Counted from the stretch's first letter, positions 3,494 through 61,376 are shown. The stretch is DNA of 64,000 nt from Candidatus Eiseniibacteriota bacterium (GCA_034440375.1 JAWXBZ010000105.1:2269-66268); one strand, 5' to 3'. The notes: generated from the sequence alone by a model not told the origin. Translations and numbers: made by a program.

Positions 3494-3943
3494 TCACTCC
3501 GTCGAAACGGGATCATTCTTCTGGTCGAGCGCGGCTTTCATGGTGTGCCAGGCCAACGTGGCGCACTTCACCCGCATCGGGAACTCGCGAACGCCGCCGA
3601 AGACGGCCAACTTGCCGAGTCCGGCAGAGTCCGGCTGGGGTCCCTGTTCCGTCACCAGGTCGTGAAACGTGGTGAAAAGGCGATTGGCTTCGTCGACTGT
3701 CTTTCCCTTGAGCGCCTCGGTCATGATCGAGGCGGAGGCCGTCGAGATGGCGCATCCCGAGCCTTCGAAAGCCACGTCGGTCACGACGCCGTCGGTCATC
3801 TTCAGGTAAACCTTCACCTTGTCGCCGCAGAGCGGGTTGTATCCATCGGCGTGTGCGGTGGCGTCCGGCAGATCGTGGAAGTTACGCGGCTTCTTATAGT
3901 GCTCCAGAATCGTGTCCTGGTATAGGTCGCGCAGATCGTTCAT
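3494..3943 (-). CDS. sufU: SufU / NifU-like Fe-S scaffold (IscU family)
   Basis: LYQDTILEHYKKPRNFH...YNPLCGDKV...GSGCAISTASASIMTE is the classic SufU/IscU signature with its three Cys residues. Confidence 0.85.
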   Translation of the reverse strand: MNDLRDLYQDTILEHYKKPRNFHDLPDATAHADGYNPLCGDKVKVYLKMTDGVVTDVAFEGSGCAISTASASIMTEALKGKTVDEANRLFTTFHDLVTEQGPQPDSAGLGKLAVFGGVREFPMRVKCATLAWHTMKAALDQKNDPVSTE

Positions 3944-5214: not shown

Positions 5215-5216
5215 GG

Positions 5217-6557: not shown

Positions 6558-6566
6558 TGCCCGCCC

Positions 6567-7322: not shown

Positions 7323-7354
7323 GATGGTCGATTCCCTTCGTAAACGGTGGCGGA

Positions 7355-8799
<1,445 letters not shown>

Positions 8800-8803
<4 letters not shown>

Positions 8804-9261
8804 GCGATCTCCCCGGTCAGCTTGCTTTCGGCCGACATCAGGTGCGGAAGGGGCACCGTCGGGCGGGCCATGTCCGCCAGGCTGATGCCACGAAGTGACT
8901 TGAGAACAGCGTTGTTGATACGACTCCAATTACCCCGCGAGGGGCACCGCTCCTCGTGGGCGCATTCACCAGCATGAACGCTGCAGGTGGTCAGCCCGAT
9001 CGGCCCGTCAATGGCCTCGATGATGGCCGCGACCGAAATGGACTCGGCCGGCCGGGCCAGGTGGTAACCACCATTGACCCCCCGGTGAGAAATCAGGAGC
9101 CCCCGATGAACCAGGGCCTTCAGGATTTTCCCGACCATGGGGAGGGAAATCCCGGTCTCGACCGACAGATCCCGGGCCGTGTAATCGCCTTCTATTGCGT
9201 CAGTTATGAAGTGACTCAACAAAACGATCGCGTAGTCGGCCTGCTTGGTGATGCGGAGCAA
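8800..9261 (-). CDS. Rrf2-family transcriptional regulator (IscR/SufR-like), putative suf operon repressor
   Basis: [17 protein letters not shown]... is an Rrf2 wHTH N-terminus, and the C-terminal Cys cluster [20 protein letters not shown] could bind Fe-S. A TTG at 9261 gives the canonical MRITKQ-type N-terminus. The alternative start is the ATG at 9348. Confidence 0.6.
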
Positions 9262-27281: not shown

Positions 27282-27854
27282 ATGCATCGCTTGACGTGCA
27301 AGGCGAGTCGCGCCGCCCAAATCATCCCACTGGTCCTGGTGGCCGGGGCGATGGCGCTGTCGATTCAAGCATTTCGATCCGGATCAACCGACAACTCCGG
27401 AGTGACGCCCGCCCTTGTCACTCCGAATTACGAAGTCTCGACCTGCAACCTGCGTCATCCGATCGAAGCCCGGCTGGTGCCGCAGGGCGCAATGACCCGG
27501 GGCGGCACGGTGCGCGTGGCGCTCGAGGTTGAGGCCACGGTGTCCCTTTCCGCCGCCGAGGCCCGAATCCTCTCCAGCGGCGGGGCCACGATTCTCGGAC
27601 GTCAGCGGGCCGAACTCGGAACACTCGACGCCGGTGATGTCCGGCGCATCGAGTTCACCCTGCGTCTTCCGGAGAACGGCCGGCGGTTCGTTCTACAAGT
27701 TCTGACCACCGGCGAATCAACCACCGGCCCGATGAATCGTCTGGCGATGCTGAACATCCTGCCCGACGGCCCGGCCGATCCGGGGCAGGTCGTGACAACC
27801 CCCACCGGCGAATCGATCCGCCAGTACGCCTCGAGCGGGCGGAGGATCAACTGA
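27282..27854 (+). CDS. Hypothetical secreted protein
   Basis: Signal peptide (IIPLVLVAGAMALSIQA). The stop overlaps the downstream ATG (TGATG), indicating translational coupling with the large exoprotein gene. Confidence 0.45.
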   Translation: MHRLTCKASRAAQIIPLVLVAGAMALSIQAFRSGSTDNSGVTPALVTPNYEVSTCNLRHPIEARLVPQGAMTRGGTVRVALEVEATVSLSAAEARILSSGGATILGRQRAELGTLDAGDVRRIEFTLRLPENGRRFVLQVLTTGESTTGPMNRLAMLNILPDGPADPGQVVTTPTGESIRQYASSGRRIN

Positions 27855-30800
27855 TGCGCCTCCTCGATCGCCTCCGTCATGGGAAGGGCTGTCCGAACAA
27901 GTCCTTCGCCTACCTCATCGCCCTGATCATCCTGATCACGCTCGTCGCGACCCTCGTGCTCACCTCCTTCGTCACGTCCGCCGAGGCCGCCTTCACGGCC
28001 AGCGGCCGCTTCCTGTATGCCGACAAGCTCTGGGACAAGGACGGCTACACGGGTCAGGAACAGAACCTGCCCATCCGCCACGCGCGGGTCGAAATCGTCG
28101 ATGTTCCGTCGCTCCAGGTGATCGGATCCGGCGTTGCCGACGCCGACGGCAATTACTCGATCACGGTCACGCCACTGGCGCCGATCGTGCCGGTCAACGT
28201 GGTAGCTCGTGTCCTGACCGACGGGCGCACCGCCGGCTACGAAATTCGTATCGTCGACGAACTGACGCGCGGCCTGGGTGAGCCCGCCGTCATCGGCAAC
28301 ATTCACGCCGTCCTCAACGATCCGGTCCTGAATCACAACCAGGCCCAGCCGCTCAATTTCGGCACGTTTCTACTCGAGGATCCGGACGGCACGGGTGTGG
28401 CCCAGGCCTTCAACATCTTTGACTGTGCCGTGGATTACTTCGACTGGATGGCCCAGCCGGGCCTCTTGAACCGGCTGCCGAATGCCACCGAATACGTCAT
28501 TTTTGCGTGGTCGCCGACCAGCTCCAATGAGGGTTCCAACTACAGCGGCCACGCAATTCTTCTGGCATCCCCAGGCCAGGGGAACGACACGGACGCCTGG
28601 TCCGACACGGTCATCCTCCATGAAACCGGCCACTGGTTCGATGACTTTTTCTCGAGGTCGGACAATCCTGGCGGCCCGCACGGGATAGGTGACAACAACG
28701 CCAATGTGCTGCTGGCCTATGGTGAAGGTGTGGCCACGTTTCACTGCGCCAAGGTCCGCAAGCTCCGGGCCACCACCCGCCTGAACCTGATCGCACAGCC
28801 GATCGACAGCCACGTCAGCATCTACGGCGACCTGATGATTCCGCCCGATTCGATGATGGCCGGCGGCCTGTCGTTCTCCTACGACTTCGAGACCGGCGTC
28901 GTCTTCCAGCCGGGCCTGCCGCCGGGTGGCTTCTTTATCGGCCAGCGGGGCAGCGCCAACGAAACAAACGTTACCTCGGCCCAGTGGGACCTGGTGGACG
29001 ACGCAGGAACCCCGGATGAAACCCCGGGCGTCGACGACGATCAGGTTGGTGTCAACGATGCCATCCCGTTCGCGATCGAGCGCATCTGGTTGCCCGGCCT
29101 CCCAGCCGGCAATGCGGTCACGATCGAGGACTATTACCAGGGGTGGTACGCCCAGAACGGCGCCAATTTCATGCGCGCCGGCGTGGACGACATCTTCTTC
29201 AACCTGTCGCTGATGGAGTTCTACCCCGACTCGTACGAGCCGGATGGCACCGCGGCGCAGGCAACTTCGATTGCGCCACTGGCCTACTCCGTGACGACTG
29301 GCGCGCACCTGGTCATCAGCGAGATCGACCTCGGCGCCCAGGATGCCGTGGAGGTCTTCAACCCGTCCGACGCCGCGATCGACATGACCGGCTGGCAGAT
29401 CCAGGTGTACGTCAATGGCGACGCCGCCCCGGTGGTCAGCCGCATCTACACGTTTCCAGCCTTCACGCTCGATCCGGGTGAGGCCGTGGCGCTGCTCGAG
29501 CGCGGCGATCCGCTGAACAACGGCGCGCACCACCTCTACGGCGGCAGCACCGTGCCCAACTCGTGGAACGCCTCATGGAACTACGGCCTCGACGGGGCCG
29601 TCGTCCTGCGGGATGCGTCCAGCCAGGCCGTGGACTTTGTGAGCTGGCGACATGGGAACGGCACCCCGAACAGCACCCCGGTACCGTCGGGCACGGCCTT
29701 CACCGGCCTCCTCGACAGTCCCCCAGCGGCATCCAACCTGGCGCGTGACATCAACGGCACGGATACCGATGCCGCGGCCGATTTCACCCCAGAGGACGGC
29801 ACGCTGGCCTCGGCCAACGGCACCTTCTCACGGCATCAGACTCTGTTCGACCTGGGCGATGCCGACCTGATCCGTTTCGACGCCGTGGCCGGCATGCGCT
29901 ACGGCTTCGAGGTCCGGGCATTTTTCAGCGCCAGCGATCCGTTCGTCGAGCTCCTCTCACCGACGGGCGCGATCCTCGGGTCGAACGACAACTCGGACCC
30001 CGGCATCCGGGACGCCCGCATCGATCTCTTCGCCGGAACGACCGGCACTTACTATCTCAAAGTGCGCCACGTCGGTCCGCACACCGACTGGGCGGCCTAC
30101 AACGTGGCGGCCTTCCAGCGTCCGCCGAGCACGACGCTGCTGGCTCCTGGTGGCATCACGGCCACGGCCCAGAATGTCAACAACATCAACGATCCGGTCC
30201 ACCTGGACTGGCTGAACGGGGCGCCCTACGACTCGGTGCGGCTGTATCGCAACGGGGCGCTGCTCCAGACACTCCCGGGCTCCTCGACCAGCTACGACGA
30301 CCTGGCCGACCGCGGTGTGTATACCTATGAAGTTTCGGGTGTCGGCGGGTTGAGCGAAACCGCCAGGGCCTCGACCAACGAATACGCCGGTGTCATCGGC
30401 TGCTTTGTTTCCGAGGACTTCGAGCAGGGGAACGCCAACGACTGGATCAGCCCCCCCAACACATGGGGCGTCACGGCGCTGGCGGAGGGGGGCGTGTTCG
30501 GTTACACGGACAGCCCGGTCGGCACCTCTCGCGGTTGTGCCGGCGTCCTGGAAAGTTGCACCACCTCCACCCCGACCGTCCTCCGAGTCCCGGTTCGGCT
30601 CCCGCCCAATTCGCACCTCATGTTCGACCAGATCTGCATCACCGAACATTGCGCACCGACGCCATGCGATCTCGGCATCGTCGAGATCTCCACGGACGAG
30701 GGAACCAGCTGGACGGAAATCGCCCGCTACGATCAGGCCAGCGATCCGGCCTGGACCGACAATGTGGCTGATCCGACCGACTGGCGGCCCGCGGATCTCT

Positions 30801-31237
30801 CACTGGACGATTTCATCGGACAGCAGATCCTGGTCCGTTTCCGGGTTCAGACAGATCCGCTGGCGGAGCTGGACGGCTGGTATCTCGACAATGTCCGGGT
30901 CAACGAGGGTGATTGCACGCTGGCCGCCGTCGGGCCGGCGGCCGGTGCCGCGGGCCTCACCGGTTTGATGGCACCGTATCCCAATCCAATGACCGGCACC
31001 GCCCGGTTCGCGTTCCAACTGGCCACACCGGTGACAAACGTCTCGATGTCGGTTTATGACATCTCGGGTCGCCTCGTCCGCCGTGAGTCACTCGGCCATC
31101 TCGATACCGGCACGCACGCCTGGCTCTGGGACGGTCGCGGCGATTCCGGAAGCGAGACAGCCAACGGTGTCTACTTTGCCCGGCTCGAAGCCGCCGGCAA
31201 ATCGTTCACGCAGAAGGTTCTTAAAGTCACGCGGTAG
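27854..31237 (+). CDS. Large secreted multidomain protein: HExxH zincin-like segment, lamin-tail domain, pre-peptidase C-terminal domain and a C-terminal T9SS type-A/FlgD-Ig-like domain
   Basis: N-terminal TM/signal anchor. VILHETGHWFDD is an HExxH motif. HLVISEIDLGAQDAVEVFNPSDAAIDMTGWQIQV is a lamin-tail domain. DADLIRFDAVAGMRYGFEV...GTYYLKVRH is a PPC-like domain. C-terminal tail VSMSVYDISGRLVRR...NGVYFARL. Confidence 0.6.
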   Translation: MRLLDRLRHGKGCPNKSFAYLIALIILITLVATLVLTSFVTSAEAAFTASGRFLYADKLWDKDGYTGQEQNLPIRHARVEIVDVPSLQVIGSGVADADGNYSITVTPLAPIVPVNVVARVLTDGRTAGYEIRIVDELTRGLGEPAVIGNIHAVLNDPVLNHNQAQPLNFGTFLLEDPDGTGVAQAFNIFDCAVDYFDWMAQPGLLNRLPNATEYVIFAWSPTSSNEGSNYSGHAILLASPGQGNDTDAWSDTVILHETGHWFDDFFSRSDNPGGPHGIGDNNANVLLAYGEGVATFHCAKVRKLRATTRLNLIAQPIDSHVSIYGDLMIPPDSMMAGGLSFSYDFETGVVFQPGLPPGGFFIGQRGSANETNVTSAQWDLVDDAGTPDETPGVDDDQVGVNDAIPFAIERIWLPGLPAGNAVTIEDYYQGWYAQNGANFMRAGVDDIFFNLSLMEFYPDSYEPDGTAAQATSIAPLAYSVTTGAHLVISEIDLGAQDAVEVFNPSDAAIDMTGWQIQVYVNGDAAPVVSRIYTFPAFTLDPGEAVALLERGDPLNNGAHHLYGGSTVPNSWNASWNYGLDGAVVLRDASSQAVDFVSWRHGNGTPNSTPVPSGTAFTGLLDSPPAASNLARDINGTDTDAAADFTPEDGTLASANGTFSRHQTLFDLGDADLIRFDAVAGMRYGFEVRAFFSASDPFVELLSPTGAILGSNDNSDPGIRDARIDLFAGTTGTYYLKVRHVGPHTDWAAYNVAAFQRPPSTTLLAPGGITATAQNVNNINDPVHLDWLNGAPYDSVRLYRNGALLQTLPGSSTSYDDLADRGVYTYEVSGVGGLSETARASTNEYAGVIGCFVSEDFEQGNANDWISPPNTWGVTALAEGGVFGYTDSPVGTSRGCAGVLESCTTSTPTVLRVPVRLPPNSHLMFDQICITEHCAPTPCDLGIVEISTDEGTSWTEIARYDQASDPAWTDNVADPTDWRPADLSLDDFIGQQILVRFRVQTDPLAELDGWYLDNVRVNEGDCTLAAVGPAAGAAGLTGLMAPYPNPMTGTARFAFQLATPVTNVSMSVYDISGRLVRRESLGHLDTGTHAWLWDGRGDSGSETANGVYFARLEAAGKSFTQKVLKVTR

Positions 31238-34677: not shown

Positions 34678-35313
34678 ATGTCCGTGAAAAGGATTGACGT
34701 CGGCGCAAAGACCGGGCACCCGGAAACGGGTGAGCTGCTGGATCAGCTTGAAGGACGGCTGGCTTTGGACCGACTCCGGGAAGTTGCGACGCACGTGCTG
34801 GCCTGCCGACGCTGCCAAAGGTCGATTGAGGAGCTGAAGCGCGTAACCAACTCGCTCGGCGCATCGACACTGGAGTCGCCCCCGGAGTGGCTGGCGAACT
34901 GGGCGGACGATCGGCCGCGGGATCAGCCGAAAAAGGTTCCGAAGGGTCTGATGCCAATCCTGAGGCTGGTCCTCGATTCATGGCGTCTCGAACCGCTGGG
35001 GGCTCGCGGGGTCGCCCCTTCCAGCCGCCGTCTCCTCTATCGGGCCGGCTCGGTCGATCTGGATATTGAACTAGACCTGGGACGCGCGGGCCGGACGGCC
35101 ACGGTTCGGGGCCAGATTCTTGATGCCACCGTGACCGGTGGGCGACAGTTCTCGGAAGGGCACGTTCGGTTACTCGCCGGCCGGCGGCTCGTGGTCAAGG
35201 TGCCGCTCGGCACCCGGGGAGACTTCCGGCTGAGCGACGTGCCCCGCCGCGTCTACCACCTGAATATCGCGGCGGCCGGATTCCGGGTTCGAGTCGATTC
35301 ATTCGAGATATGA
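34678..35313 (+). CDS. Putative zinc-binding (ZAS-type) anti-sigma factor, soluble
   Basis: H-x3-C-x2-C motif (HVLACRRCQ) near the N-terminus, immediately downstream of the ECF sigma gene. No evident TM helix. The stop overlaps the next gene's start (ATGA). Confidence 0.55.
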   Translation: MSVKRIDVGAKTGHPETGELLDQLEGRLALDRLREVATHVLACRRCQRSIEELKRVTNSLGASTLESPPEWLANWADDRPRDQPKKVPKGLMPILRLVLDSWRLEPLGARGVAPSSRRLLYRAGSVDLDIELDLGRAGRTATVRGQILDATVTGGRQFSEGHVRLLAGRRLVVKVPLGTRGDFRLSDVPRRVYHLNIAAAGFRVRVDSFEI

Positions 35314-38111
35314 CCCTGTCCGTTCGCGTCGGCGCGCTGGAGCGCGACCTCTTGAACAGCCGGGGTGATGCCATCCGACCGGCCCATTTCAAAAAATACC
35401 TGGCCTCGCTCCAGCGGACCACGCGTCGCGATCCATTGAAAGCTGAGTCCGCATCGAGCCGGGCCATGCTGGTTGCCCGGGCCGTGGGCGATGGCGTCGC
35501 GCTGGCGCATCTGCAGCGGGCACGGGCCCACGCGCGTCGCGCGAGTAACCGATGGCCGGAGGCGGCCTCGGACTATCGCGCGGCTCTCAAGCGATTTCAG
35601 GATCTGGATCGGGCGGACGAATGCGCGTTCACCCGTATCGGCCTGATTGATGCCCTCATGTACCTCGGGCGCTACGAGGATGCCCTGTTTGAGGCGCACG
35701 CGGCGCGACGAACGGTCCAAAGGCTTGGCGATCCGATTCGCGGCGCCCGCATCGAAAACAACATCGGAAACATTCACCATCGGCGCGATGACCTCGAAAC
35801 GGCCATCCAATGGTATGACCGCGCGCGGCGGACATTTCGGCGGCGGCACGACGACTCCGCGCTGGCATTGGTTGAGTTCAACCGCGGAAACGTGCTCGGG
35901 CCGATGGGGCGCACCGCCGAGGCGCGGATCGCCTACGAAACCGCCGGGGCCATTTTTTCCCGGCAGGGCTTCACGGACCGGACGGCCCAGGTGCGGTACA
36001 ACCTGGCCTACCTTCGCTTTCTCGAAAACCGGTTGCCGGAGGCTCTCGAGGAGTTGGAGCAGGTCCGCGTGACCTTTCAGGCGACGGGCGATGAACGTCA
36101 CCTCGGCCTGACGCGACTCGATGAGTCTGAGATCCTTCTCCGCCTGAATCTTTGGGATGACGCCGGAGAAGCGGCTACCGAAGCCATCCGCCGGCTGAAG
36201 GCACTCGGTCTCGACTACGAGCGGGCGAAAGCCCTCACGTTCCTGGCCCTGGCCACGGCCCGTCGAGGCGATCCGTCGGAGGCGGCGGGCCTGCTGGACT
36301 CGGCCCGCGAACTTTTCAAGACGGAAAAAAACCGCTGGTGGGTCGGTGAGACCAGCCTTCAGCTGGCCCGATTGGCTGTCGGTCGAGGTGCCTGGTCAGA
36401 GGCACGGCTGGAAGCGCAGCGGGCACGCCGGACGTTCGCCCGAAGAATATCCAACGAAGCGCTGGGGCGGGCCCTGCTGATCGAAGCGGAGGCGGCCCGC
36501 GGAGCCGGCCGCAGGGCCCAAGCCGGGCGCACGCTGGAGGCGGCGCTTCAGGCCGCCCGGCGGAGTCGCTCGCCCTGGCTCACGGCGGAAGTTCGCGAGT
36601 TGGCGGGACTCCTGGCACTTGACCGGGGCGATGCTGCGACGGCACGGCGCCACTTCAACCAGGCCATCAAGGCCATTGAACAGCTTCGTGCATTGCTCTC
36701 CGGTGACGACCTCCGGGCGGGGTTTCTGCGCGAGCGGGATCGCCCCTATCTGGAATTGGCCCGTCTCGAACTCGTGGCCGGCCGGCCGCGACAGGCGTTC
36801 GAACTATTCGAACGCGGGCGGGCGCGGGCCCTGCTCGACCTCCTGACGGACATGCCGGCGGGAAAGCGGGCACCAGGCAAGGGTCGCAGGAAATTGGAGA
36901 CACGAGCCAGGCACCTGCTGTCGGAATTGGGGCGCCGTTATCACGAAGACGACGTCGCCGAATCGTCCGGCCAACGACAGTGGACCAGCGCCGGAATATC
37001 CGAAGCGCGGGAATCGCTCGAGGCGGAAGCGGCCCGGCTTCTGCGTCGCGTGGATCAAAGCCCTGGTTCGATCGCCGGGCGGCGTCCCGGTCTCGGCGAG
37101 GTGCAACGTCTCCTTCGTCCCGGCGAAACCCTTCTTTCTTTCCACGAAATCGGCGGCCGGGTCGGGGTATTTCGGATTACCCGGACCCGCTTCGACTCGG
37201 TGCCGGACCTGGCCGGCGCGGCCGACATCGAGAGGCTGGCGGAATCGCTGCGATTTCAGTGGGGGCGGTTCCGCTTCGATGCGGAATTACTGGCACGCCA
37301 CGGCGCTCAGTTGGAAAGCATGGCCCGGAGCGATCTTCGGCGCCTTCATGAGCTCTTGATCTCACCCTTTGATTCTCCCTCGGAGAAGGGGCCGCTGATC
37401 ATCGTTCCGACGGCTGGACTTCGCTCGGTCCCTTTTTCCGCACTCGACGACGGAACGGCGTGTCTGGCCCGGAGGCGGGCCATCGTCGTGTCGCCCAGTG
37501 CGGCGGTCTGGAGCCGTTGCCGGACCCACGAGACGGGCGATGGGGGCCTTGAGAGGGCCGTGCTCATTGGTATCCCCGACAAGCGGGCTCCGCAGGTTGC
37601 CGACGAAATACGGGAGTTGGCCGGGCGGCTACCGGGTGCCCGGGTATTCCTCGGTTCGGAGGCAACGGCGCACCAATTTCTGGCATCCCTGCCGAAGGCC
37701 TCGATCTTGCATGTAGCCACGCATGGCATGTTCCGTACCGATCGCCCGAACCTGTCGGGAGTCCGACTGTCCGATCGATGGGTCTACGGCTATGAAGTTG
37801 CCCGGGGAATGATGCGGGCCCGCCTGGTCGTGCTATCGGCCTGCGTGACCGGGCTTTCCGCCGCCTGGGCCGGCGGCGATTGGATGGGCCTGGCCCGATC
37901 CTTTCTGACCGCGGGAGCCCGCCGGGTTCTGGTAGGCCTCTGGGATGTCGATGACGATGCCACCCGGCAATTGATGGGACATTTTTACCGCTTTCTGATC
38001 AACGAAGGGCATCTGCCGGCGGAAGCGCTGGCCCGGGCCCAGGCCGAAATGGCGTCCAGCGGCTGGCACCCGTACTACTGGTCCGGCTTTTCGCTCATGG
38101 GAGATCTGTGA
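35310..38111 (+). CDS. TPR-repeat CHAT-domain protein (caspase-like His/Cys peptidase)
   Basis: About 600 aa of TPR-like repeats followed by a CHAT domain (LIIVPTAGLRSVPFSAL...ASILHVATHGMFR...ARLVVLSACVTGL...WSGF) with a His/Cys dyad. Confidence 0.75.
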   Translation: MTLSVRVGALERDLLNSRGDAIRPAHFKKYLASLQRTTRRDPLKAESASSRAMLVARAVGDGVALAHLQRARAHARRASNRWPEAASDYRAALKRFQDLDRADECAFTRIGLIDALMYLGRYEDALFEAHAARRTVQRLGDPIRGARIENNIGNIHHRRDDLETAIQWYDRARRTFRRRHDDSALALVEFNRGNVLGPMGRTAEARIAYETAGAIFSRQGFTDRTAQVRYNLAYLRFLENRLPEALEELEQVRVTFQATGDERHLGLTRLDESEILLRLNLWDDAGEAATEAIRRLKALGLDYERAKALTFLALATARRGDPSEAAGLLDSARELFKTEKNRWWVGETSLQLARLAVGRGAWSEARLEAQRARRTFARRISNEALGRALLIEAEAARGAGRRAQAGRTLEAALQAARRSRSPWLTAEVRELAGLLALDRGDAATARRHFNQAIKAIEQLRALLSGDDLRAGFLRERDRPYLELARLELVAGRPRQAFELFERGRARALLDLLTDMPAGKRAPGKGRRKLETRARHLLSELGRRYHEDDVAESSGQRQWTSAGISEARESLEAEAARLLRRVDQSPGSIAGRRPGLGEVQRLLRPGETLLSFHEIGGRVGVFRITRTRFDSVPDLAGAADIERLAESLRFQWGRFRFDAELLARHGAQLESMARSDLRRLHELLISPFDSPSEKGPLIIVPTAGLRSVPFSALDDGTACLARRRAIVVSPSAAVWSRCRTHETGDGGLERAVLIGIPDKRAPQVADEIRELAGRLPGARVFLGSEATAHQFLASLPKASILHVATHGMFRTDRPNLSGVRLSDRWVYGYEVARGMMRARLVVLSACVTGLSAAWAGGDWMGLARSFLTAGARRVLVGLWDVDDDATRQLMGHFYRFLINEGHLPAEALARAQAEMASSGWHPYYWSGFSLMGDL

Positions 38112-47815: not shown

Positions 47816-49576
47816 ATGAGGATTCCGACCATGCCCGCTGAAATGACTCGAATCGGACGCCGCACGCCAGCGGCCCTTCTGTGCTTCGGAACGGCTCTGA
47901 TTTTGTCCGTCGGTCCGGCCTCGGCCTGGACGATTTCCGGGCATGTCACGAACTCCAACGGTCAGAACGCCGTGGATGTCGACCTCGACTTTGAGGATCG
48001 AAGCACCGGAACGATCCTCGACACACCGGGCGACAGGACGGACGCATTCGGCAACTACAGCGTGACCGTTCCAACCGGTGACTACCGGATCTACTTCAAT
48101 GCCACGCCGGCCTCACACCTGTTCGACGGCAGTGTGGACGCGACAATCACCTCAGATAGGACGATTGACATGGTCTTGAATGTTGGGACGTACGTCAGTG
48201 GCGACGTGGTCGACATGGATGGCTTCGGCCTCGCCTTCGTCGACCTGAATTTCTACGATGTTTCCAGTGGCGCCAACCTCGGGTACGCGGGCGACGACTC
48301 CGACGCTTTTGGAAACTTCGCGGTGCTGGTCGATCCGGGCCTGACCTTCGACATCCTCTTCCGGCCGGCGATCGGCGACCCGCATTGCGCGCGCCAGATC
48401 GAGAACGTCGCGGTCGGCACGTCGGACATCGTTCTGCCCCCGGTGGTCCTGGAAAGCGGCGCGTTTGTCTCAGGAAGCGTCCACCGCACGGACAACGGCA
48501 ACCCGGTGGTCGATGCCGATATCGACGCCACGAATACTCTGACTGGTGAACGTCGGACCCGGCTCGGCTTAGACAACACGGACGGATCAGGAGCCTTTCA
48601 GGTCGTGCTGCCCGCCGGCACCTGGGACATCACAGCCACTCCCCCGGCCGGGCAGGGGCTGGCGGCGGAAATCGTTCCCGCTGTGGTCGTCAGCGGCTCC
48701 GTCTCGACCGGCACGATCCAGCTGCCCGTCGGCTACAGCATCACGGGCACCGTCCTTGGCCCGGGGAACGCGCCGCAGTCGGATGCCAACGTCGATCCTG
48801 TGCATGTCGTGCGCCGTATCGAGATGCCGACGTCAGGCGACCACACGACCCCCTCCGGGCAGTACGCCATGATCCTGGCGGCGGCGACGTACGATTTCCT
48901 GGTCTGGCCGCCCCCGGGAGCGCCGCTGGCGGTCGGTGTTCTGCGCAATCGAAGCGTGACCGGGGCTGCCACCCTGCCGACCGTCAACTTGTCCGGCGGT
49001 GTCGTCATCCAGGGCACCGCGAAGACCCCCTCGGGTCTGCCGGTCCGCGATGCCGACATCAACGCCGAGCAGCTGGCCGATGCGTTCGTTTACCCCACCC
49101 GTGACGACAATACCAACGGGTCCGGGGTCTACGCGATCCGTGTGCCGGCGGGATCGTATCGACTCATCGCCCGTCCCCCCGTCGGGAGCGGGCTGGTGGC
49201 CGATACGGTTGTCGTGGCTGCGACATCAAACCAGACGGTCCACTTCACGTTCGGCGTGACGACGCCCAGTGGCGTCGGGGACAGCCGCCCTCCGTCCCGC
49301 CTGGCGCTGGCCACGGAACACGATATCGCCGCCGGAGCCGTGGCCTTCCGGTTCTCACTGCCACCGGGCCAGGCCATGCCGACAACCCTCCGGATCTACT
49401 CCGCTGATGGCCGCCTGCGCCGGACACTGATCGACGAAGTTATGGACGGCGGATCCCACCTCACAAGGTGGGACGGGCGGGACGGCTCCGGTCGTCGCCT
49501 CCCGTCGGGAATGTACTTCGTCCGACTGGCATCGGCTTCCGACGCAGTTAACGCCCGGGCTGTCCTGGTGGAATGA
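47816..49576 (+). CDS. Secreted protein with repeated CarboxypepD_reg-like (transthyretin-fold) domains and a C-terminal T9SS type-A/FlgD-Ig-like domain
   Basis: Signal peptide, then four or more repeats of the form GxV.D..G.P...A.VD........T.DGNY.V.VP.G.Y.I. C-terminal tail TLRIYSADGRLRRTL...SGMYFVRL. Confidence 0.6.
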   Translation: MRIPTMPAEMTRIGRRTPAALLCFGTALILSVGPASAWTISGHVTNSNGQNAVDVDLDFEDRSTGTILDTPGDRTDAFGNYSVTVPTGDYRIYFNATPASHLFDGSVDATITSDRTIDMVLNVGTYVSGDVVDMDGFGLAFVDLNFYDVSSGANLGYAGDDSDAFGNFAVLVDPGLTFDILFRPAIGDPHCARQIENVAVGTSDIVLPPVVLESGAFVSGSVHRTDNGNPVVDADIDATNTLTGERRTRLGLDNTDGSGAFQVVLPAGTWDITATPPAGQGLAAEIVPAVVVSGSVSTGTIQLPVGYSITGTVLGPGNAPQSDANVDPVHVVRRIEMPTSGDHTTPSGQYAMILAAATYDFLVWPPPGAPLAVGVLRNRSVTGAATLPTVNLSGGVVIQGTAKTPSGLPVRDADINAEQLADAFVYPTRDDNTNGSGVYAIRVPAGSYRLIARPPVGSGLVADTVVVAATSNQTVHFTFGVTTPSGVGDSRPPSRLALATEHDIAAGAVAFRFSLPPGQAMPTTLRIYSADGRLRRTLIDEVMDGGSHLTRWDGRDGSGRRLPSGMYFVRLASASDAVNARAVLVE

Positions 49577-51312
49577 TGTCGAGACCCCGGCACTACCTCT
49601 TTGAACTGTTTCTGGCAGCCATGATCGTGGCCGGCGGTAACTCGTTTGCCCTGGCCGGTGACCCGGAGGCGCCGAGGCTTCGTGGCACGGTCGTGGACCA
49701 CAACGGCGCCCCGATCTACAAGGCGGATCTGGACTTTTACGAACCGGGTACCCGCAACCGTGTCGACCCGACTCCGCCGGGCCGCGATCCGGACTCGGAC
49801 AAGACCGACCTGGACGGGCAATACTCGATAAAGGTGGCTCCTGCCACCTACGACATCCGATACCAACCACCGTTGGGCCGTTCCGACCTGGCCACGGTCG
49901 TCGTCGAGGGTGTCCGCATCACGGCAGACACGACACTCGACGTGAGGCTCCCGCGAGGCCATGTCGTGACCGGCCGCATCACCACCCGTGGCGGTGAGGC
50001 GGTCGAAGGGGTCGACATCGACGTCCTCGACCCGATTACCGGACGGCATCTGCCAACGCCCGGCGACAAGACCGGCACGGGCGGTGCCTACCGGGTGATC
50101 ATCGTTCCAGGCACCTACACTTTCACCTTTACACCGCCGTCCGGAGCCCGCCTGGTCGCCGTCGTCCTGACGCGCGTGGCGATCACGGCCGCCACGCGGC
50201 TCGATGCCGCCCTTCCACCCGGGTATTTTCTGGTTGGGCGACTCCTTGGACCGGACGGCGCGCCGGTCACCGGCGCTGACCTCGACGTCGATGACTCGAC
50301 AAGCGGGGAGCGGATCCGGACACCGGATGACAGCACCGATCCGAACGGCCGCTTCCGAATCGTCGTTCCCGCCGGCCCGATCGATCTGATCCTCAATCCG
50401 CCGCCGGGCCGGGAAATGGCGGCAAACATCGTGAGAAGTATCATTCTGACCGGAGACCGTGATCTCGGGGATCTCAGCTTCGAGACTGGAGCAAACCTAT
50501 CGGCGATCATACTCGGCCCCGACGGCCTGCCCCTTTCGGGCGCGCGCGCGCTGTTCCACGAGGAAAGCACCGGCCTCCGTTACCCGGCCCCGGGCTCCAC
50601 CAGCGGTTTGGATGGACGACTGAGCGTCCGCCTGCCTCTCGGCTCGTGGATCGTCCGCGTCGCGCCACCGATTGGAGCGGCGTTCGACACTCTCGACGCC
50701 GGTACGCTGCGGCTCGACCGACCCGGGGAAGCCATCTGGCAGTTCGACGCCGGCGAGTTCCGCCGGCTGACCATCGGCCTCCTCAACGCCTTGACTCGGC
50801 TCGAAGGAACAGTTGAGCTCTGGCGATCGCCACGGTCGGGCAGACCACTCGTGGCCCTGTCGGTGGGCGGTGACCGACCCGCCGAACTGACGCTGTCTCC
50901 CGGTCGATACGATCTGGTGGCCCGTGCCGGGTCCGCCTACCTTCCGGATTCAATAACGATAGTCGATCTATCAATTTCGGCTGACACCACGCTGACGTTC
51001 GACTTTCTGGCTCGGACGCCCCCACCCACGCCGCAAACCGCGGTCGCTCTCGGCCGATCAACACCAAGCCCATTCGCGAGTACCACGCGCATGACGGCGA
51101 TGGCGACATCCGGGACCCGGGCAACCCTCTTCGTTTTCGACGTATCCGGGCGGCTGGTTCGTGAATTCCCTCTCGAATTCGCCACCACAAGTCAGGATGT
51201 CGAATGGAACGGCCGCGATATGAGTGGCGCACCGGTCCCGGCCGGTGTTTACTTCCTTCGACTGTTCACTCCCACCTCCGTGGCCATCGGCCGCGTGGTC
51301 AAACGTCCATGA
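49573..51312 (+). CDS. Paralog of the preceding gene: CarboxypepD_reg-repeat secreted protein with the same C-terminal domain
   Basis: Same repeat architecture (GTVVDHNGAPIYKADLDFYE..., TGRITTRGGEAVEGVDIDVLD...). C-terminal tail TLFVFDVSGRLVREF...AGVYFLRL. Its start overlaps the upstream gene's stop. Confidence 0.6.
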   Translation: MMSRPRHYLFELFLAAMIVAGGNSFALAGDPEAPRLRGTVVDHNGAPIYKADLDFYEPGTRNRVDPTPPGRDPDSDKTDLDGQYSIKVAPATYDIRYQPPLGRSDLATVVVEGVRITADTTLDVRLPRGHVVTGRITTRGGEAVEGVDIDVLDPITGRHLPTPGDKTGTGGAYRVIIVPGTYTFTFTPPSGARLVAVVLTRVAITAATRLDAALPPGYFLVGRLLGPDGAPVTGADLDVDDSTSGERIRTPDDSTDPNGRFRIVVPAGPIDLILNPPPGREMAANIVRSIILTGDRDLGDLSFETGANLSAIILGPDGLPLSGARALFHEESTGLRYPAPGSTSGLDGRLSVRLPLGSWIVRVAPPIGAAFDTLDAGTLRLDRPGEAIWQFDAGEFRRLTIGLLNALTRLEGTVELWRSPRSGRPLVALSVGGDRPAELTLSPGRYDLVARAGSAYLPDSITIVDLSISADTTLTFDFLARTPPPTPQTAVALGRSTPSPFASTTRMTAMATSGTRATLFVFDVSGRLVREFPLEFATTSQDVEWNGRDMSGAPVPAGVYFLRLFTPTSVAIGRVVKRP

Positions 51313-56757: not shown

Positions 56758-56787
56758 TTGCCACGCCCGGTCAGATGCACGTATAAT
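56758..56787 (+). promoter_or_regulatory. Candidate sigma-70 promoter (TTGCCA-N18-TATAAT) for the downstream NHL-repeat gene
   Basis: The hexamers were read from an AT-richer 320-bp intergenic region. The ATG at 56870 is about 80 bp downstream. Confidence 0.35.
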
Positions 56788-56869: not shown

Positions 56870-58057
56870 ATGCCCGACTGGCGCCTGCTGAACAACATTC
56901 GGTGCAACATCCTTTGGGGCGTCCCGGCAAGCCTTCTCCTTTTTTCAGCGCTGGTCGGCGGCGGTTGCTCTTCCGACGACACCCCCGGCGTCGAACCGGG
57001 CCTGGATGGCGTCGCCTACGTCGTCGCCGGCACAGCCGGCGAAAGCGGTAACGTGGGTGATGGTGGCCCCGCCACCGAGGCCCTCCTGTACTGGCCGATC
57101 GACGTGGCTGTTCTCCCGGCTGGCGAACTCGTTGTCGTGGACTGGAACAATCATTGCCTGCGTAGGATCGATGCCAACGGGATCATCCATCTCTTCATCG
57201 GTTCCGGCCGCCTGGGTGACTCCAAAACGGGCCAGATGCTCGAGATCAAGTTCAACCACCCCACCGATTTCAAGATTGGGCCGGACGGGACCTACTACGT
57301 AGCCGCCTTCCATAACTGGGCCGTCCGTCGGATCGATCCGACCACCGGTCAGGCCACCACGCCCATCGGCAACTCCATCAAGGGCTTCGGTGGTGACGGC
57401 GGGCCGGCCAACGCGGCGCAGTTCAACCTCCCCGGCAGCCTCGTCTTCGATCCGACCGGGAACCTTTACATCACCGACCAGGGAAACATGCGGATCCGCA
57501 TGGTCAATGCCGGTGGCACCGTATCGACGATCGCCGGCTCAACGTTCGGATTCGAGGACGGCCAGGGCAGCAACGCCAAGTTCGGCTTCGAGGGGGATCA
57601 GGCCACGACCGGTTCGGGGCCCCGAAGTGGCTGCATCGATATTTCGGCCGACGGCCTGTATCTCTACGTGGCGGACACCCTGAACAACCGCATCCGGCGC
57701 ATCGAACTCAGCACCGGCATGGTGTCCACCATCGCCGGAACTGGCGCCACCGGCAACCTGGGCGATAACGGACCGGCGCTTGCGGCCACGCTGAACGGCC
57801 CCAGTGACGTCACCTGTGCGGCGAATGGCGACATCTACTTCTCCGACCGGTACAGCCACGTCATCCGCAAGATCAACACCGCCGGGACGATCACCCGGGT
57901 GGTCGGTACCGGCGCGAAGGGTGTCTCTCCGAACGGAACGCCGGCCCTGGAGACAAAGCTCAACGAACCACTCGGCCTGACGTTCGACAACGCCACCAAC
58001 ACGCTCTACATCGCCGACCAGTACAACCACCAGGTATTGAAGGTGAAAAATCCATGA
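56870..58057 (+). CDS. NHL-repeat (six-bladed beta-propeller) lipoprotein
   Basis: Lipobox LVGGGCSSDD. Repeated NHL-type blades (LYWPIDVAV...GELVVVDWNNHCLRRID; LPGSLVFDPTGNLYITDQGNMRIRMV; NGPSDVTCAANGDIYFSDRYSHVIRKI). Confidence 0.7.
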   Translation: MPDWRLLNNIRCNILWGVPASLLLFSALVGGGCSSDDTPGVEPGLDGVAYVVAGTAGESGNVGDGGPATEALLYWPIDVAVLPAGELVVVDWNNHCLRRIDANGIIHLFIGSGRLGDSKTGQMLEIKFNHPTDFKIGPDGTYYVAAFHNWAVRRIDPTTGQATTPIGNSIKGFGGDGGPANAAQFNLPGSLVFDPTGNLYITDQGNMRIRMVNAGGTVSTIAGSTFGFEDGQGSNAKFGFEGDQATTGSGPRSGCIDISADGLYLYVADTLNNRIRRIELSTGMVSTIAGTGATGNLGDNGPALAATLNGPSDVTCAANGDIYFSDRYSHVIRKINTAGTITRVVGTGAKGVSPNGTPALETKLNEPLGLTFDNATNTLYIADQYNHQVLKVKNP

Positions 58058-59184
58058 TGACTCGATACGCGATTGCCTTGATGACCGCGGCGATTCTCGT
58101 CGGCTGCGGCAGTGACACGTCGACCGGCCCACGGGTCGAGATGGACGGCGTCCTCTACAACGTGGCCGGCGTCGCCGGTGAACCGGGCGGCGGCCGTGAT
58201 GGTGTCCAGGCGACGGCGTCGCGCCTTTATTGGCCTCAGGACCTGGTTGTCGATGCTGCCGGCGAGATCATCGTGGCCGACTGGAACAACCATGTGATCC
58301 GCGCCATCAGCACCGACGGCAAAATTCGCCGAATCATGGGTTCGGGAATTCACGGTGATGACAGCAACGGTGCGGCACTCGAGGTCAACCTGAACCATCC
58401 CGACGGAGTCGCCATCGGACCCGACGGTAACGTCTACATTTCGGGGTGGCACAACTGGAAGATCAAGATGTGGGATGTCGCGACGGGCCTCATCTCGTCG
58501 GTTGTCGGCAGCGACAATGGCTTCAGCGGTGATGGCGGACTGGCTACCGAGGCCGCCATCTCGCTTCCGAGCAGCGTCGTCTGGGACCACAGCCATAACA
58601 TGTACATCTCGGACCAGGGGAACAACCGGATCCGCAAGATCAATACCAATGGCATCATCCGGACATTTGCGGGGGCCGGCAGGGGTTTCACTGACGGCGT
58701 CGGCCCGGGGGTGAAGTTCGCCTTCCCGAATGGAACCGACGCCTATCCGGGCGGCCGTATCGACGTCAGCGCGGACGGGCGCTATCTCTACGTTGCCGAT
58801 ACCGAGAACCACCGGGTTCGCCGCATCGAGCTCGCCACACAGGTCGTCACGACCATCGGCGGCGACGGCAGCGGCGCGTACACCGGCGACGGTGGCCAGG
58901 CCACTCTGGCCCGATTCAACTACCCCACCGATATTGCCTGCACGCCGGAAGGGGACATTTTCGTGGCCGACGCCAGGAACCATGCCGTCCGAATGATTGC
59001 GGCTGACGGCCAGGTGACCACGGTGGCCGGCACCGGCATCCGCGGTGTTTCGGGTGACGCTACCCTGGCCACGGAGGCCAATCTGGATACCCCGTCAGCC
59101 CTCTACTATCACGTGGCAACGAGGACCCTCTACATCTCCGACACCTACAATTGCCAGATCAAGAAGGTGAGGTTCCCCGCTTAG
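58054..59184 (+). CDS. NHL-repeat lipoprotein, paralog of the preceding gene
   Basis: Lipobox LVGCGSD. Blades LYWPQDLVVDAAGEIIVADWNNHVIRAIS and NYPTDIACTPEGDIFVADARNHAVRMI. ATGA overlap with the upstream paralog. Confidence 0.7.
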   Translation: MMTRYAIALMTAAILVGCGSDTSTGPRVEMDGVLYNVAGVAGEPGGGRDGVQATASRLYWPQDLVVDAAGEIIVADWNNHVIRAISTDGKIRRIMGSGIHGDDSNGAALEVNLNHPDGVAIGPDGNVYISGWHNWKIKMWDVATGLISSVVGSDNGFSGDGGLATEAAISLPSSVVWDHSHNMYISDQGNNRIRKINTNGIIRTFAGAGRGFTDGVGPGVKFAFPNGTDAYPGGRIDVSADGRYLYVADTENHRVRRIELATQVVTTIGGDGSGAYTGDGGQATLARFNYPTDIACTPEGDIFVADARNHAVRMIAADGQVTTVAGTGIRGVSGDATLATEANLDTPSALYYHVATRTLYISDTYNCQIKKVRFPA

Positions 59185-59204
59185 CACTTCAGAGTTCCAG
59201 CATC

Positions 59205-59243
59205 GGGCCGGCGGCGACTTCGATCGCGCCGGCCCTTTTTCTT
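59205..59243 (+). terminator. Rho-independent terminator
   Basis: GGGCCGGCG...CGCCGGCCC stem (9 bp) followed by TTTTTCTT, 20 bp after the NHL gene's stop. Confidence 0.55.
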
Positions 59244-59254
59244 GGCCTGCGGCA

Positions 59255-59725
59255 CTACCGGGCGCCCTCAATGATCCAGGTCCGGACCAGTTCCAGATCG
59301 CCCGGCGTCAGAGAGGCGCGATTGTCCGGCATCCGATCGCCACGGATGCCCCCTCGCCCCTCCAGCTTCCAGAAGAGATAGCTGGAGTCGGGCAGCCCCG
59401 GTTTGATGGCGCAGATACGGAGGGCGGTGGCCTCTTCCCCCGCCTCGAACAGATCGGCATGCGTGCCGGTCAAGTACCGGGAGCGGGTCCCGAGACGGCT
59501 GTGGCATCCCGCGGTGTTGCACGAGTAGCGATCGATCAACGGCGCGATATCCGCCGCGTAGGTCACGGAGGCCGGAAGGCTGGTGTCGGCCACGCTTGTG
59601 CAATCGGGGGGCGGGCCGGGTGTCGTGGAGCCGGAACCGCACGACTGGAATGCCAGCGCGAGGCCGAGCATCGCCGCGGCACTCAAGAAAAACGGGGTCC
59701 GGTGGGAGTGAATCAGAAGCGGCAA
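59255..59725 (-). CDS. Small lipoprotein with a PSCyt1-like (planctomycete-type cytochrome c-like) domain carrying a C-x4-CH motif
   Basis: Lipobox LAFQSCGSG. ...DIAPLIDRYSCNTAGCHS...RMPDN...LTPGDLELVRTWIIEGA resembles the PSCyt1 pattern (F..DI.PIL...C..CH ... L..WI..GA), but with two extra residues between the Cys pair. Confidence 0.45.
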   Translation of the reverse strand: MPLLIHSHRTPFFLSAAAMLGLALAFQSCGSGSTTPGPPPDCTSVADTSLPASVTYAADIAPLIDRYSCNTAGCHSRLGTRSRYLTGTHADLFEAGEEATALRICAIKPGLPDSSYLFWKLEGRGGIRGDRMPDNRASLTPGDLELVRTWIIEGAR

Positions 59726-60804
59726 ACGCGGACGCGGTTGTTGTACGTATCGGCAATCCAGAGATCACCGCTGGCATCGAATGCCAGGGCCGAGGGGTAA
59801 TCAAGTTCCGCCTCGAGCGCCGGCCCGCCATCACCGCCAAAGCCCCGCAGGCCGGTGCCGGCAACGGTCGTTATCACGCCATCGGACGCCACACGCCGGA
59901 TCCGGTTGTTGCCCGAATCGGCGATGTAAATCGCACCGTCCGGTCCAGGAATCGCGTCGTAGGGATCGGAGAGTCCGGCTGCGGCGCCCGGGCCACCATC
60001 CCCCTCTGAGCCCGGCTGGCCGGTGCCCGCCACGGCATGAATGATGCCGGCGGCATCGATACGCCGCACCGCATGATTGCCTGTGTCGCAGATGTAAAGA
60101 TCGCCCGTGGCCTGGTTCAGGCGAAGTCGATAAGGGTGCCGGAGTCTGGCCGCCGCCGCCGGACCGCCGTCGCCGGCATGGCCCGCAAGGCCGGTGCCGG
60201 CGATGGTCGTTACGCGGCCATTCGCATCGATCCGTCGAATCCGGTGATTGCTGGTATCGGCCACGTAAATCGGGCTGCCGCCGGTGGCCACCGCCACGCC
60301 GCACGGCTCGTCGAATGAGGCTTCCAGCGCGGGGACGTTTTCGTCGCCTACGCCGTGCTCGGCCCGTCCGGCCACGATGAAGGCCCGCCCGTTGGGGTTG
60401 CAATAAAGGATTCGGGGCTCGTGGTTACCGGCCAGGTAAAAGCCGCCGAGCCCATCGCGGGCCATCGAGAAGGTGTGGTGCAAGGGTGTCTCGAGGGCGG
60501 GCCGGTCATCGATGACCGCGGCCTCGGCCCCCGTTCCCATGATCGTGCGGAGGCGATTGTCCGAGTCCAGCCGGCGGATCCGGAAGTTGTTCCAATCGAG
60601 GATGAGCAGTCGCCCGCTCTCGTCAAACCCAAGGTCAATCGGCAGAAAGAGCGCCGCCTGATGGGGAGGGGCGCCTTCGCCGCGATAGGCCGGCACACCC
60701 GTTCCCACGACGCTGCAGATCGAGCCGGGGTCCGTGCATGTGACCTGTTCGACGCCGGCCGGATCCTTGCCGCAGCCACTGGCCAGGAGAAGAACCAGCG
60801 CCAT
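59713..60804 (-). CDS. NHL-repeat lipoprotein
   Basis: Lipobox MALVLLLASGCGKD. Blades LFLPIDLGFDESGRLLILDWNNFRIRRLD and LSDPYDAIPGPDGAIYIADSGNNRIRRV. The start at 60804 avoids overlap with the upstream gene. Confidence 0.65.
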   Translation of the reverse strand: MALVLLLASGCGKDPAGVEQVTCTDPGSICSVVGTGVPAYRGEGAPPHQAALFLPIDLGFDESGRLLILDWNNFRIRRLDSDNRLRTIMGTGAEAAVIDDRPALETPLHHTFSMARDGLGGFYLAGNHEPRILYCNPNGRAFIVAGRAEHGVGDENVPALEASFDEPCGVAVATGGSPIYVADTSNHRIRRIDANGRVTTIAGTGLAGHAGDGGPAAAARLRHPYRLRLNQATGDLYICDTGNHAVRRIDAAGIIHAVAGTGQPGSEGDGGPGAAAGLSDPYDAIPGPDGAIYIADSGNNRIRRVASDGVITTVAGTGLRGFGGDGGPALEAELDYPSALAFDASGDLWIADTYNNRVRVCRF

Positions 60805-60845
60805 GACTCGTGGCAGGATCGGCCATTGCGATAAATGAAATTCCC

Positions 60846-61376
60846 TCACTCCGGCGCCCCGTTCGTGATCCATTCCTCGATGACATCGATCTCGCCGTCC
60901 GAGAGGTAAGGCCCGCCATTCGGCATTCGACGCCCCTTGGTCGCCGGCACGCCCCGAAGCTTTTGAATCAGGAAACTGTTGTCGGGATCATTGGGATCGA
61001 CCCGGAGCAGCCCCTCGAGCTGGGCATCGCGCGTCGTTGGGACCACACCCACGAGATTCTGGTGGGACATGCCGGCCTCGAGGACAAGTCCGGCCTCACC
61101 CTGCGCCGAACTGTGGCAATTGCTGGTGGCGCAGGTCGGCGTGAAAATCTCGGCCTGGATACTGGCCATGGTCGGCTCGACCGTCACCGGTGGGGGTTTG
61201 CTGTCCCCGCCGCAGGCGGCCAGTGCAATACTGATGAGCAATCCGACCGCCACCACAACCTGTTGCCATGAAACAATTTGAGAGAGAGAGCGAGGCAAGA
61301 TCCGATCCTCCGCAGCCAACTGGTGATGCCCCCCTTGAGGACTTACCGTCTGTAATGATAGCTGAAGTCGCCGCAC
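60846..61376 (-). CDS. Small lipoprotein with a PSCyt1-like domain (C-x4-CH), paralog of the 59255-59725 protein
   Basis: LAACGGDS lipobox; ...IQAEIFTPTCATSNCHS...RRMPNG...LSDGEIDVIEEWITNGAPE. The exact start is uncertain. Confidence 0.45.
   Translation of the reverse strand: MRRLQLSLQTVSPQGGHHQLAAEDRILPRSLSQIVSWQQVVVAVGLLISIALAACGGDSKPPPVTVEPTMASIQAEIFTPTCATSNCHSSAQGEAGLVLEAGMSHQNLVGVVPTTRDAQLEGLLRVDPNDPDNSFLIQKLRGVPATKGRRMPNGGPYLSDGEIDVIEEWITNGAPE

Follow-up and report, generated by a model that had tools for sequence, protein, structure and literature searches.

FoxE, encoded in the foxEYZ operon of Rhodobacter ferrooxidans SW2, is a putative Fe(II) oxidase whose gene lies beside that of a beta-propeller protein, FoxY (PMC10654088). 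FoxE carries two heme domains per chain, both with a CxxCH motif, and the Met of either domain is a ligand to the heme in its partner domain; FoxY has been reported to be a propeller containing pyrroloquinoline quinone (PQQ) and was compared with cytochrome cd1 nitrite reductase (PMC10654088). Another described domain, PSCyt1 (PF07635), also has a CxxCH motif and forms the N-terminus of PSCyt2/PSD1 (DUF1549/DUF1553) proteins, and an association of PSCyt domains with DUF1501 has been published for the Planctomycetes-Verrucomicrobia-Chlamydiae superphylum (PMC3542564). The wider spacing CX4CH is an accepted, rarer heme c motif (PMC11492766). The present analysis concerns a 64,000-nt stretch from the metagenome-assembled genome of an uncultured Candidatus Eiseniibacteriota bacterium (GCA_034440375.1, JAWXBZ010000105.1:2269-66268), hereafter the window, in which the genes of three NHL propeller lipoproteins (NHL1, NHL2 and NHL3) lie together with those of two small lipoproteins (cytA and cytB) that are predicted to be monoheme c-type cytochromes with CX4CH motifs.

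This cluster differs from the described systems in several respects. FoxE is not a lipoprotein and holds its two domains in one chain, whereas cytA and cytB are separate single-domain CX4CH lipoproteins. Their neighbours are NHL propellers instead of a PQQ propeller, and in place of the diheme FoxE, FoxY and the inner-membrane protein FoxZ the window has two predicted monoheme genes and NHL propellers, and neither the cluster nor the genes immediately next to it encode a FoxZ-type transporter. The family of cytA and cytB resembles PSCyt1 in its weak profile similarity and in the DUF1501 neighbours of its Burkholderiales relatives; unlike PSCyt1, cytA and cytB have CX4CH, are standalone lipoproteins of about 120 residues and have NHL propellers as partners, DUF1501 being absent from the window cluster. 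The same CX4CH spacing before the proximal His is found in multiheme cytochromes (cytochrome c3 type, Desulfuromonadia), but those sites belong to unrelated folds and are mostly bis-His, whereas cytA and cytB would each have a monoheme FoxE-like domain with a conserved Met.

The reading favoured here, to which we give a probability of about 55%, is that cytA and cytB are lipid-anchored CX4CH monoheme cytochromes serving a specialised clade of NHL propellers. Both proteins would be exported by Sec, anchored by lipid and built on the FoxE/PSCyt1 fold, with heme held covalently through the widened C-x4-C-H, the His acting as proximal ligand and the invariant Met of R-M-P as distal ligand. The cytochromes would be co-transcribed with NHL3, NHL1 and NHL2 being in a convergent operon, and would work alongside all three propellers, passing electrons to or from whatever these bind or convert at an Asp/His/His/Asp site on the channel face. 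It is plausible that the cluster represents a so far undescribed periplasmic redox module. As a whole, this amounts to a well-supported annotation and, built upon it, a hypothesis of function.

The C-x4-CH motifs to which a sequence-only reading of the window had drawn attention, CNTAGCH in cytA and CATSNCH in cytB, are present, and each is followed by a Met-Pro pair: about 60 residues past the motif both proteins have R-M-P, and then W-I-x-x-G-A. The two are paralogues, related at a BLASTP E value of 1e-12 with 26% identity and an hhalign probability of 99.4%. Their lipoboxes read LAAC in cytB and FQSC in cytA, whose orthologues have canonical lipoboxes, and both proteins are predicted to be exported to the periplasmic side. 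Two more Cys residues of cytA (C42 and C105) are conserved within its subfamily.

A homologue search with cytB found 82 relatives, mostly lipoproteins of 135-165 residues without a Pfam domain. In an alignment of 84 sequences the second Cys, the following His, the Met-Pro and the Trp-Ile are invariant, and the first Cys and the lipobox Cys nearly so. The two-residue insertion between the Cys residues, whose conservation the sequence-only reading had proposed to check, is prevalent: CX4CH occurs in 66 of the 84 sequences, CX2CH in 14 (and in one further protein that has two), CX5CH in two and CX3CH in one. Such a pattern, in which the Cys residues, the His and the distal Met are fixed and the loop between the Cys residues ranges from 2 to 5 residues, is what one would expect at a heme c site, and the motif is no product of chance.

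Sequence profile and fold both single out the diheme cytochrome FoxE as the best solved relative of the small proteins. The family profile matches both heme domains of FoxE (5mab) with an E value of 3.3e-5, and the C..CH, RMP and WI..GA landmarks align, at an identity of about 25%. In FoxE, the distance between each CxxCH and the RMP Met suggests that these Met residues are the reported axial ligands, and the R-M-P Met of the cytA/cytB family is predicted to be a conserved distal axial ligand. The resemblance to PSCyt1 noticed earlier proved right in kind, since 16 of 26 family members show weak PSCyt1 matches (E below 0.1, best 2.7e-6), while formal membership fails: cytB reaches 16.7 bits (E 0.011) against the Pfam gathering threshold of 22, and cytA gives no match. 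Searches of both proteins against NCBIfam returned nothing significant. Overall, it is very likely that cytA and cytB are c-type cytochromes whose heme-attachment motif, though unusual, is conserved, and their predicted place in the FoxE/PSCyt1-type cytochrome c domain family, as bearers of a conserved CX4CH variant, is well supported.

The standalone form of cytA and cytB (138-176 aa, without PSCyt2/PSD1 domains) had been considered unusual, yet the family, which comprises about 30,000 representative clusters, commonly includes small standalone lipoproteins. When 1.84 billion representative proteins were searched with the family profile, 30,360 matched at E <= 1e-3 and, under the stricter limit of E <= 1e-30, 1,409, and many of these proteins contain two to eight copies of the domain; the profile also spans a C-terminal extension of some members, so that weak matches need not all be cytochrome domains. 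Among the best 149 matches, domains with the full signature have CX2CH 142 times and CX4CH 101 times, often with both in one protein, which makes CX4CH a common variant of the domain and not a peculiarity of the window. The 84-sequence and 149-protein counts are used here because a genome scan started from a 12-sequence alignment employed a search pattern that included the CX4C spacing, and the spacings in its 80 loci are biased accordingly. No description of the CX4CH cytochrome family or of NHL-cytochrome clusters was found in the literature on PSCyt1, CX4CH and Eisenbacteria cytochromes, and as far as could be found the CX4CH form of the FoxE/PSCyt1-like domain is so far undescribed. If heme is bound, a very large family now labelled "hypothetical" (about 30,000 representative clusters, extension matches included) would become recognisable as periplasmic electron carriers. 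Half or more of the examined domains use CX4CH, and such cytochromes would be missed by Pfam annotation and by censuses limited to CxxCH.

The three large proteins of the cluster all pass the Pfam NHL (PF01436) cut-off of 20 bits, as the sequence-only reading had anticipated, with 86.4 bits for NHL1, 84.5 for NHL2 and 93.7 for NHL3. NHL1 also matches TEN_NHL (102 bits) and NHL2 matches SGL (41 bits); these two are 47% identical. That reading had counted four NHL paralogues, a fourth being ruled out by tblastn with NHL1, NHL2 and NHL3, which returns exactly three genes in the 64-kb window. It had also taken NHL2 for a non-lipoprotein, although NHL2 begins MMTRYAIALMTAAILVGC-GSD (AAILVGC-GSD at the end of the signal peptide) and so has the most canonical lipobox of the three. 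Each NHL protein starts with a signal peptide closing in a lipobox Cys, a residue that can be read in five of five cluster proteins and in 23 of 23 NHL proteins of related clusters. NHL3 also has a conserved N-terminal Cys pair. Its AlphaFold2 model (predicted local distance difference test score, pLDDT, 95.9) is a confident propeller with 24 strands, consistent with six blades; the NHL assignment of the cluster proteins is well supported.

The best Foldseek match of NHL3 is 9ifo, the NHL domain of a bacterial teneurin-like protein (template modelling score, TM, 0.86; 43% identity), and among its 50 best matches the nearest solved structures are this protein, animal teneurins, SOQ1 (TM 0.79-0.80) and NHLRC2 (TM 0.77-0.78). 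Plant SOQ1 and human NHLRC2 resemble the cluster in combining an NHL propeller with a redox-active module, which in them is a fused thioredoxin-like domain and in the window would be a separately encoded cytochrome. A signature of four residues, D46/H99/H117/D272 in mature NHL3 numbering, is found in 22 of 23 NHL proteins of these clusters (window 56870-59184 and 59713-60873; L004, L089, L092, L093, L100, L102 and L104), across all paralogue groups and lineages. In generic NHL homologues of similar overall identity these residues occur in just 0-18%, and in an alignment with SOQ1 the residues at the H99 and H117 positions are not His. According to the secondary structure of the NHL3 model, D46 and D272 are the third residues of the innermost strands of blades 1 and 5, while H99 and H117 lie in loops of blade 2, which would face the channel top, going by general propeller topology. 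This arrangement in the model suggests a candidate metal or substrate site. A bolder version, which we consider unlikely, is that the NHL proteins form an unrecognised class of periplasmic lipid-anchored metalloenzymes defined by these four residues and relying for catalysis on electron exchange with interchangeable small heme c lipoproteins, either FoxE-like with CX4CH or P460-like; given the swapped Met ligation of FoxE, cytA and cytB might in that case pair like the halves of a split FoxE, each supplying the Met of the other.

The five genes form two convergent operons, NHL1-NHL2 on the plus strand and cytB-NHL3-cytA on the minus strand (Table 1). All five open reading frames (ORFs) were found where the sequence-only reading had placed them, start choices aside. 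Its "duplicated module" on the minus strand is instead one operon, cytB-NHL3-cytA, whose two cytochrome genes are paralogues that diverged long ago. The products of this operon match three successive NCBI entries, SGI90_07710, SGI90_07705 and SGI90_07700, at 99-100% identity, and all of these entries are labelled hypothetical. The start codon of NHL2 and the stop codon of NHL1 share ATGA, and the minus-strand neighbours overlap when the longer ORF starts are taken. Between the convergent operons, 3' of NHL2, lies a terminator-like hairpin with a perfect 9-bp GC stem and a 13-nt loop followed by a T-run (TTTTTCTT), which a terminator scan overlooked because its loop is longer than 8 nt. Next to the cluster the window encodes a DUF188 protein and an M13 peptidase.

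The association of NHL3 with small heme proteins was examined in eight contexts (the window, L004, L100, L093/L094/L096, L092, L104, L089 and L102), a small and non-random sample, and a small heme c lipoprotein is encoded in six of the eight. In the Eisenbacteria-like contigs L004 and L100 the whole five-gene cluster is syntenic with the window. NHL1 orthologues in L004 have 66-68% identity and the NHL2 orthologue 74%, and L100 has an NHL gene in the position corresponding to NHL1. Orthologues of cytA (47-80% identity) come after those of NHL3 in L004, L100 and L093/L094. In L093/L094/L096, where the flanking genes are different, the NHL3 orthologue (54% identity) is directly followed by a cytA orthologue (49%, CTAIGCH); further on come genes for an outer-membrane barrel, for a second and third NHL lipoprotein and for a cytochrome-P460-like lipoprotein with CxxCH, which scores 30.2 bits against a cut-off of 27 (PF16694). 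L092 and L104 likewise combine NHL genes with a P460-like CxxCH lipoprotein. The P460-like genes (L092:9840-10337, L093:10529-10942 and L104:5537-6016) stand directly after tandem NHL lipoprotein genes, and the NHL3 orthologues of these three contigs have 52-56% identity.

The clusters of L092, L093 and L104 thus resemble that of the window in having an orthologous NHL3, tandem NHL lipoproteins with the same Asp/His signature and a heme c lipoprotein; they differ in that the P460-like protein belongs to another family (PF16694), with its CxxCH near the C-terminus. In L092 and L093 a barrel homologue, the L093 copy of which matches Phenol_MetA_deg, is encoded between the NHL genes; a search of the 64-kb window for a P460-like gene or an outer-membrane barrel found neither. 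The recurrence in six of eight contexts with different heme families indicates that the heme protein is exchangeable, which fits a generic redox partner. Overlapping or abutting genes, together with the recurrence of NHL3 with heme lipoproteins outside close relatives, support the earlier suggestion that the small proteins are partners of the propellers, and there is moderate support for a functional tie between the cytochromes and a distinct NHL clade. NHL propellers are mostly regarded as binding domains, and this pairing, if true, would be their first redox-linked role in bacteria. In L004 (1146-4896) and L092 (1637-4907) the NHL/cytochrome cluster is immediately preceded by genes for an extracytoplasmic function (ECF) sigma factor and for a large Ser/Thr kinase that contains WD40 or TPR repeats, a pair absent among the window genes scanned next to the cluster, where the DUF188 and M13 peptidase genes lie on that side.

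Several observations weigh against the favoured reading. On the side of the cytochromes, the PSCyt1 match is sub-threshold for cytB and missing for cytA, the cytB model has no significant Foldseek match (best E 0.7), and a cytA-only profile found no cytochrome in the PDB, so that the tie of cytA to cytochromes runs via the cytB family (hhalign 99.4%). The sequence-only reading had proposed a search for cytochrome c maturation genes; a Pfam scan that covered about 40 larger genes in the 64-kb window revealed none. The swapped Met ligation of FoxE also means that His/Met ligation inside a single cytA or cytB monomer is not guaranteed. On the side of the propellers, NHL neighbours occur at just 1 of 88 loci of the cytochrome family, L089 and L102 have NHL genes and no heme protein, and the structures closest to NHL3 include binding or scaffold domains (teneurins, TRIM71), not known redox enzymes.

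Part of this evidence would fit small proteins that bind no heme, their Cys pair being a disulfide or metal site in a structural partner or chaperone of the propellers. The non-canonical spacing, the lack of any significant Pfam or NCBIfam match and the failure to find maturation genes in the window all agree with such a role. It is nevertheless very improbable, as the Cys loop varies in length between 2 and 5 residues whereas the distal Met-Pro and the His directly following the second Cys never change, a combination that a disulfide or metal site would not require, and both sequence and fold match a solved heme protein with the ligand residues aligned.

It is also conceivable, though unlikely, that cytA and cytB are genuine c-type cytochromes with another periplasmic partner and no functional tie to the NHL proteins, their adjacency being synteny inherited in one lineage. 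The 87 of 88 family loci without NHL neighbours agree with this, as do the NHL3 orthologues that lack any heme protein in L089 and L102; L004 and L100 share their flanking genes (DUF188, SDR and RecQ) with the window, so that they are not independent evidence and carry limited weight. On the other hand, the adjacency of NHL3 and cytA is kept in L093/L094, at 49-55% identity, despite different flanking genes, in L092 and L104 the position next to the NHL genes is taken by another heme lipoprotein family, and start and stop codons overlap by 1-13 nt in L004, L094 and L100, as well as in the window with the longer ORF starts.

The count of 1 in 88 led to the rejection of NHL proteins as a general partner of the cytochrome family. 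A metagenome scan with the cytA alignment gave five loci, of which the two new ones also lack NHL genes, and in the JGI contig Ga0315338_1000559 (L099) four cytochrome-family genes lie within about 6 kb with no NHL neighbour. Neighbours at the other loci include DUF1501/DUF1800, DUF5777, porin-like proteins, Gcw_chp and Cu2_monoox_C. In Burkholderiales (L001, L002, L003, L008, L011 and L025) the order DUF1800-DUF1501-small CX4CH cytochrome is conserved, which parallels the published DUF1501-PSCyt link; pairing with DUF1501 was seen only in these relatives. GFO_IDH_MocA, DUF993 and AP_endonuc_2 genes lie beside this group in L001, L002 and L008. In Thermoanaerobaculia (L014, L016, L019, L039, L046, L061, L083 and others) the cytochrome stands between one or two paralogous proteins of about 450 residues without a Pfam match, encoded upstream, and a DUF5777 membrane beta-barrel encoded downstream. 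Woeseiaceae and other Gammaproteobacteria (L013:5803-7074, L041:5857-7080 and about 35 more loci) have lipoproteins of 400-450 residues in which a middle domain is flanked by two cytochrome domains, either both CX4CH or one CX4CH and one CX2CH. Related proteins of about 285 residues have a CopC-like C-terminal domain, and a subset of the loci lies beside ECF sigma/anti-sigma genes, an S8 protease, and porin-like or Gcw_chp barrels.

The barrels bear on the question whether the cytochromes are themselves catalytic, in Fe(II) oxidation or other extracellular or outer-membrane electron transfer as proposed for FoxE, with the NHL lipoproteins as surface scaffolds. The closest solved relative, FoxE, has a propeller gene as its neighbour and is itself a putative Fe(II) oxidase; the cytochrome adjoins outer-membrane barrels in other phyla (DUF5777, Gcw_chp and porin-like), and in L092 and L093 a barrel homologue lies between the NHL genes. 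We regard this role as decidedly unlikely for the window cluster, which encodes no such barrel: the identity to FoxE is just about 25%, FoxY is a PQQ and not an NHL propeller, and the DUF1501 link, together with a copper monooxygenase fusion described next, points to a generic electron carrier and not to iron specificity.

In a Leadbetterella metagenome-assembled genome (L079:5308-6672) a CX4CH cytochrome domain and a PHM/DBH-type copper monooxygenase domain form one polypeptide, and in Pseudarcicella hirudinis (L005:6001-7384) the cytochrome gene overlaps a copper monooxygenase gene, Cu2_monoox_C scoring above the Pfam threshold. In these proteins the cytochrome domain may provide a bacterial copper monooxygenase with its own electron source, and the fusion and the variety of partners speak for a portable electron-transfer module. 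The fusion also points to a possible bacterial way of reducing PHM-type enzymes without ascorbate.

The peptidyl-alpha-hydroxyglycine lyase (PAL) of animals is an NHL-type propeller with a Zn site formed by three His residues from different blades, plus a catalytic Tyr and Arg. The sequence-only reading had mentioned such lyases, and the cluster could in principle be a bacterial counterpart of peptidylglycine alpha-amidating monooxygenase, with the NHL proteins as PAL-type lyases and the cytochromes replacing ascorbate as reductant. The nature of the animal lyase and the Cu2_monoox_C domain fused or adjacent to the same cytochrome family in Bacteroidota speak for this possibility, which is nonetheless extremely improbable. 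No copper monooxygenase gene is present in or near the window cluster or in its orthologous clusters. PAL is absent among the best 60 of 67 PDB sequence matches of NHL3 and among its 50 best Foldseek matches, where teneurins, SOQ1 and NHLRC2 appear instead, which leaves the lyase analogy without specific support; a PAL-type identity was set aside on these grounds. The conserved residues are two His in a single blade and two Asp: in the signature alignment of the cluster proteins the conserved His residues (H98, H99 and H117) all belong to blade 2, and no set of three invariant His is spread over several blades.

Table 1. Features of the window, with positions counted from its first letter
Feature	Position	Strand	Basis or remarks
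Sigma-70-like promoter candidate upstream of NHL1	56758..56787	+	TTGCCA, 18 nt, TATAAT; 11/12 consensus positions; consensus match alone
NHL1, six-bladed NHL propeller lipoprotein, 395 aa, lipobox Cys33	56870..58057	+	Pfam; lipobox LVGGGC
NHL2, NHL propeller lipoprotein, 376 aa, lipobox Cys18	58054..59184	+	Pfam; lipobox ILVGC
Intrinsic-terminator-like hairpin	59205..59243	+	Read from sequence
cytA, small lipoprotein, predicted monoheme c-type cytochrome	59255..59725	-	Motif and paralogy to cytB; start TTG 59725 (13-nt overlap with NHL3 end) or ATG 59671 (NCBI)
cytA Met-Pro	59327-59332	-	
cytA predicted heme motif CNTAGCH	59501-59521	-	
NHL3, NHL propeller lipoprotein, lipobox LLASGC	59713..60873 or 60804	-	Pfam, AlphaFold2, Foldseek; start uncertain, ATG 60873 or ATG 60804 (the latter the NCBI annotation)
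cytB, small lipoprotein, predicted monoheme c-type cytochrome, lipobox LAAC	60846..61376	-	Motif and homologues; likely start that of the shorter ORF, TTG 61298, with GGAGGA just before
cytB Met-Pro	60921-60926	-	
cytB predicted heme motif CATSNCH	61113-61133	-	
Suf iron-sulfur assembly operon (SufS, SufD, SufC, SufB)	3940-8929	-	No apparent link to cluster
Large BTAD-AAA-TPR regulator	21069-24476	+	No apparent link to cluster
TPR-CHAT protein, then S8 protease	35310-38111	+	No apparent link to cluster
Large secreted proteins closed by FlgD_ig	24489-27062, 27854-31237, 47816-49576, 49573-51312		

Elsewhere in the window, several large secreted proteins end in a FlgD_ig domain, namely an S8 protease, two CarboxypepD_reg proteins and an LTD/MAM protein, the last with an additional weak Por_Secre_tail match. 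Neighbouring proteins in L093 and L100 have the same tail, which may be a C-terminal domain for sorting or anchoring that is typical of the lineage.

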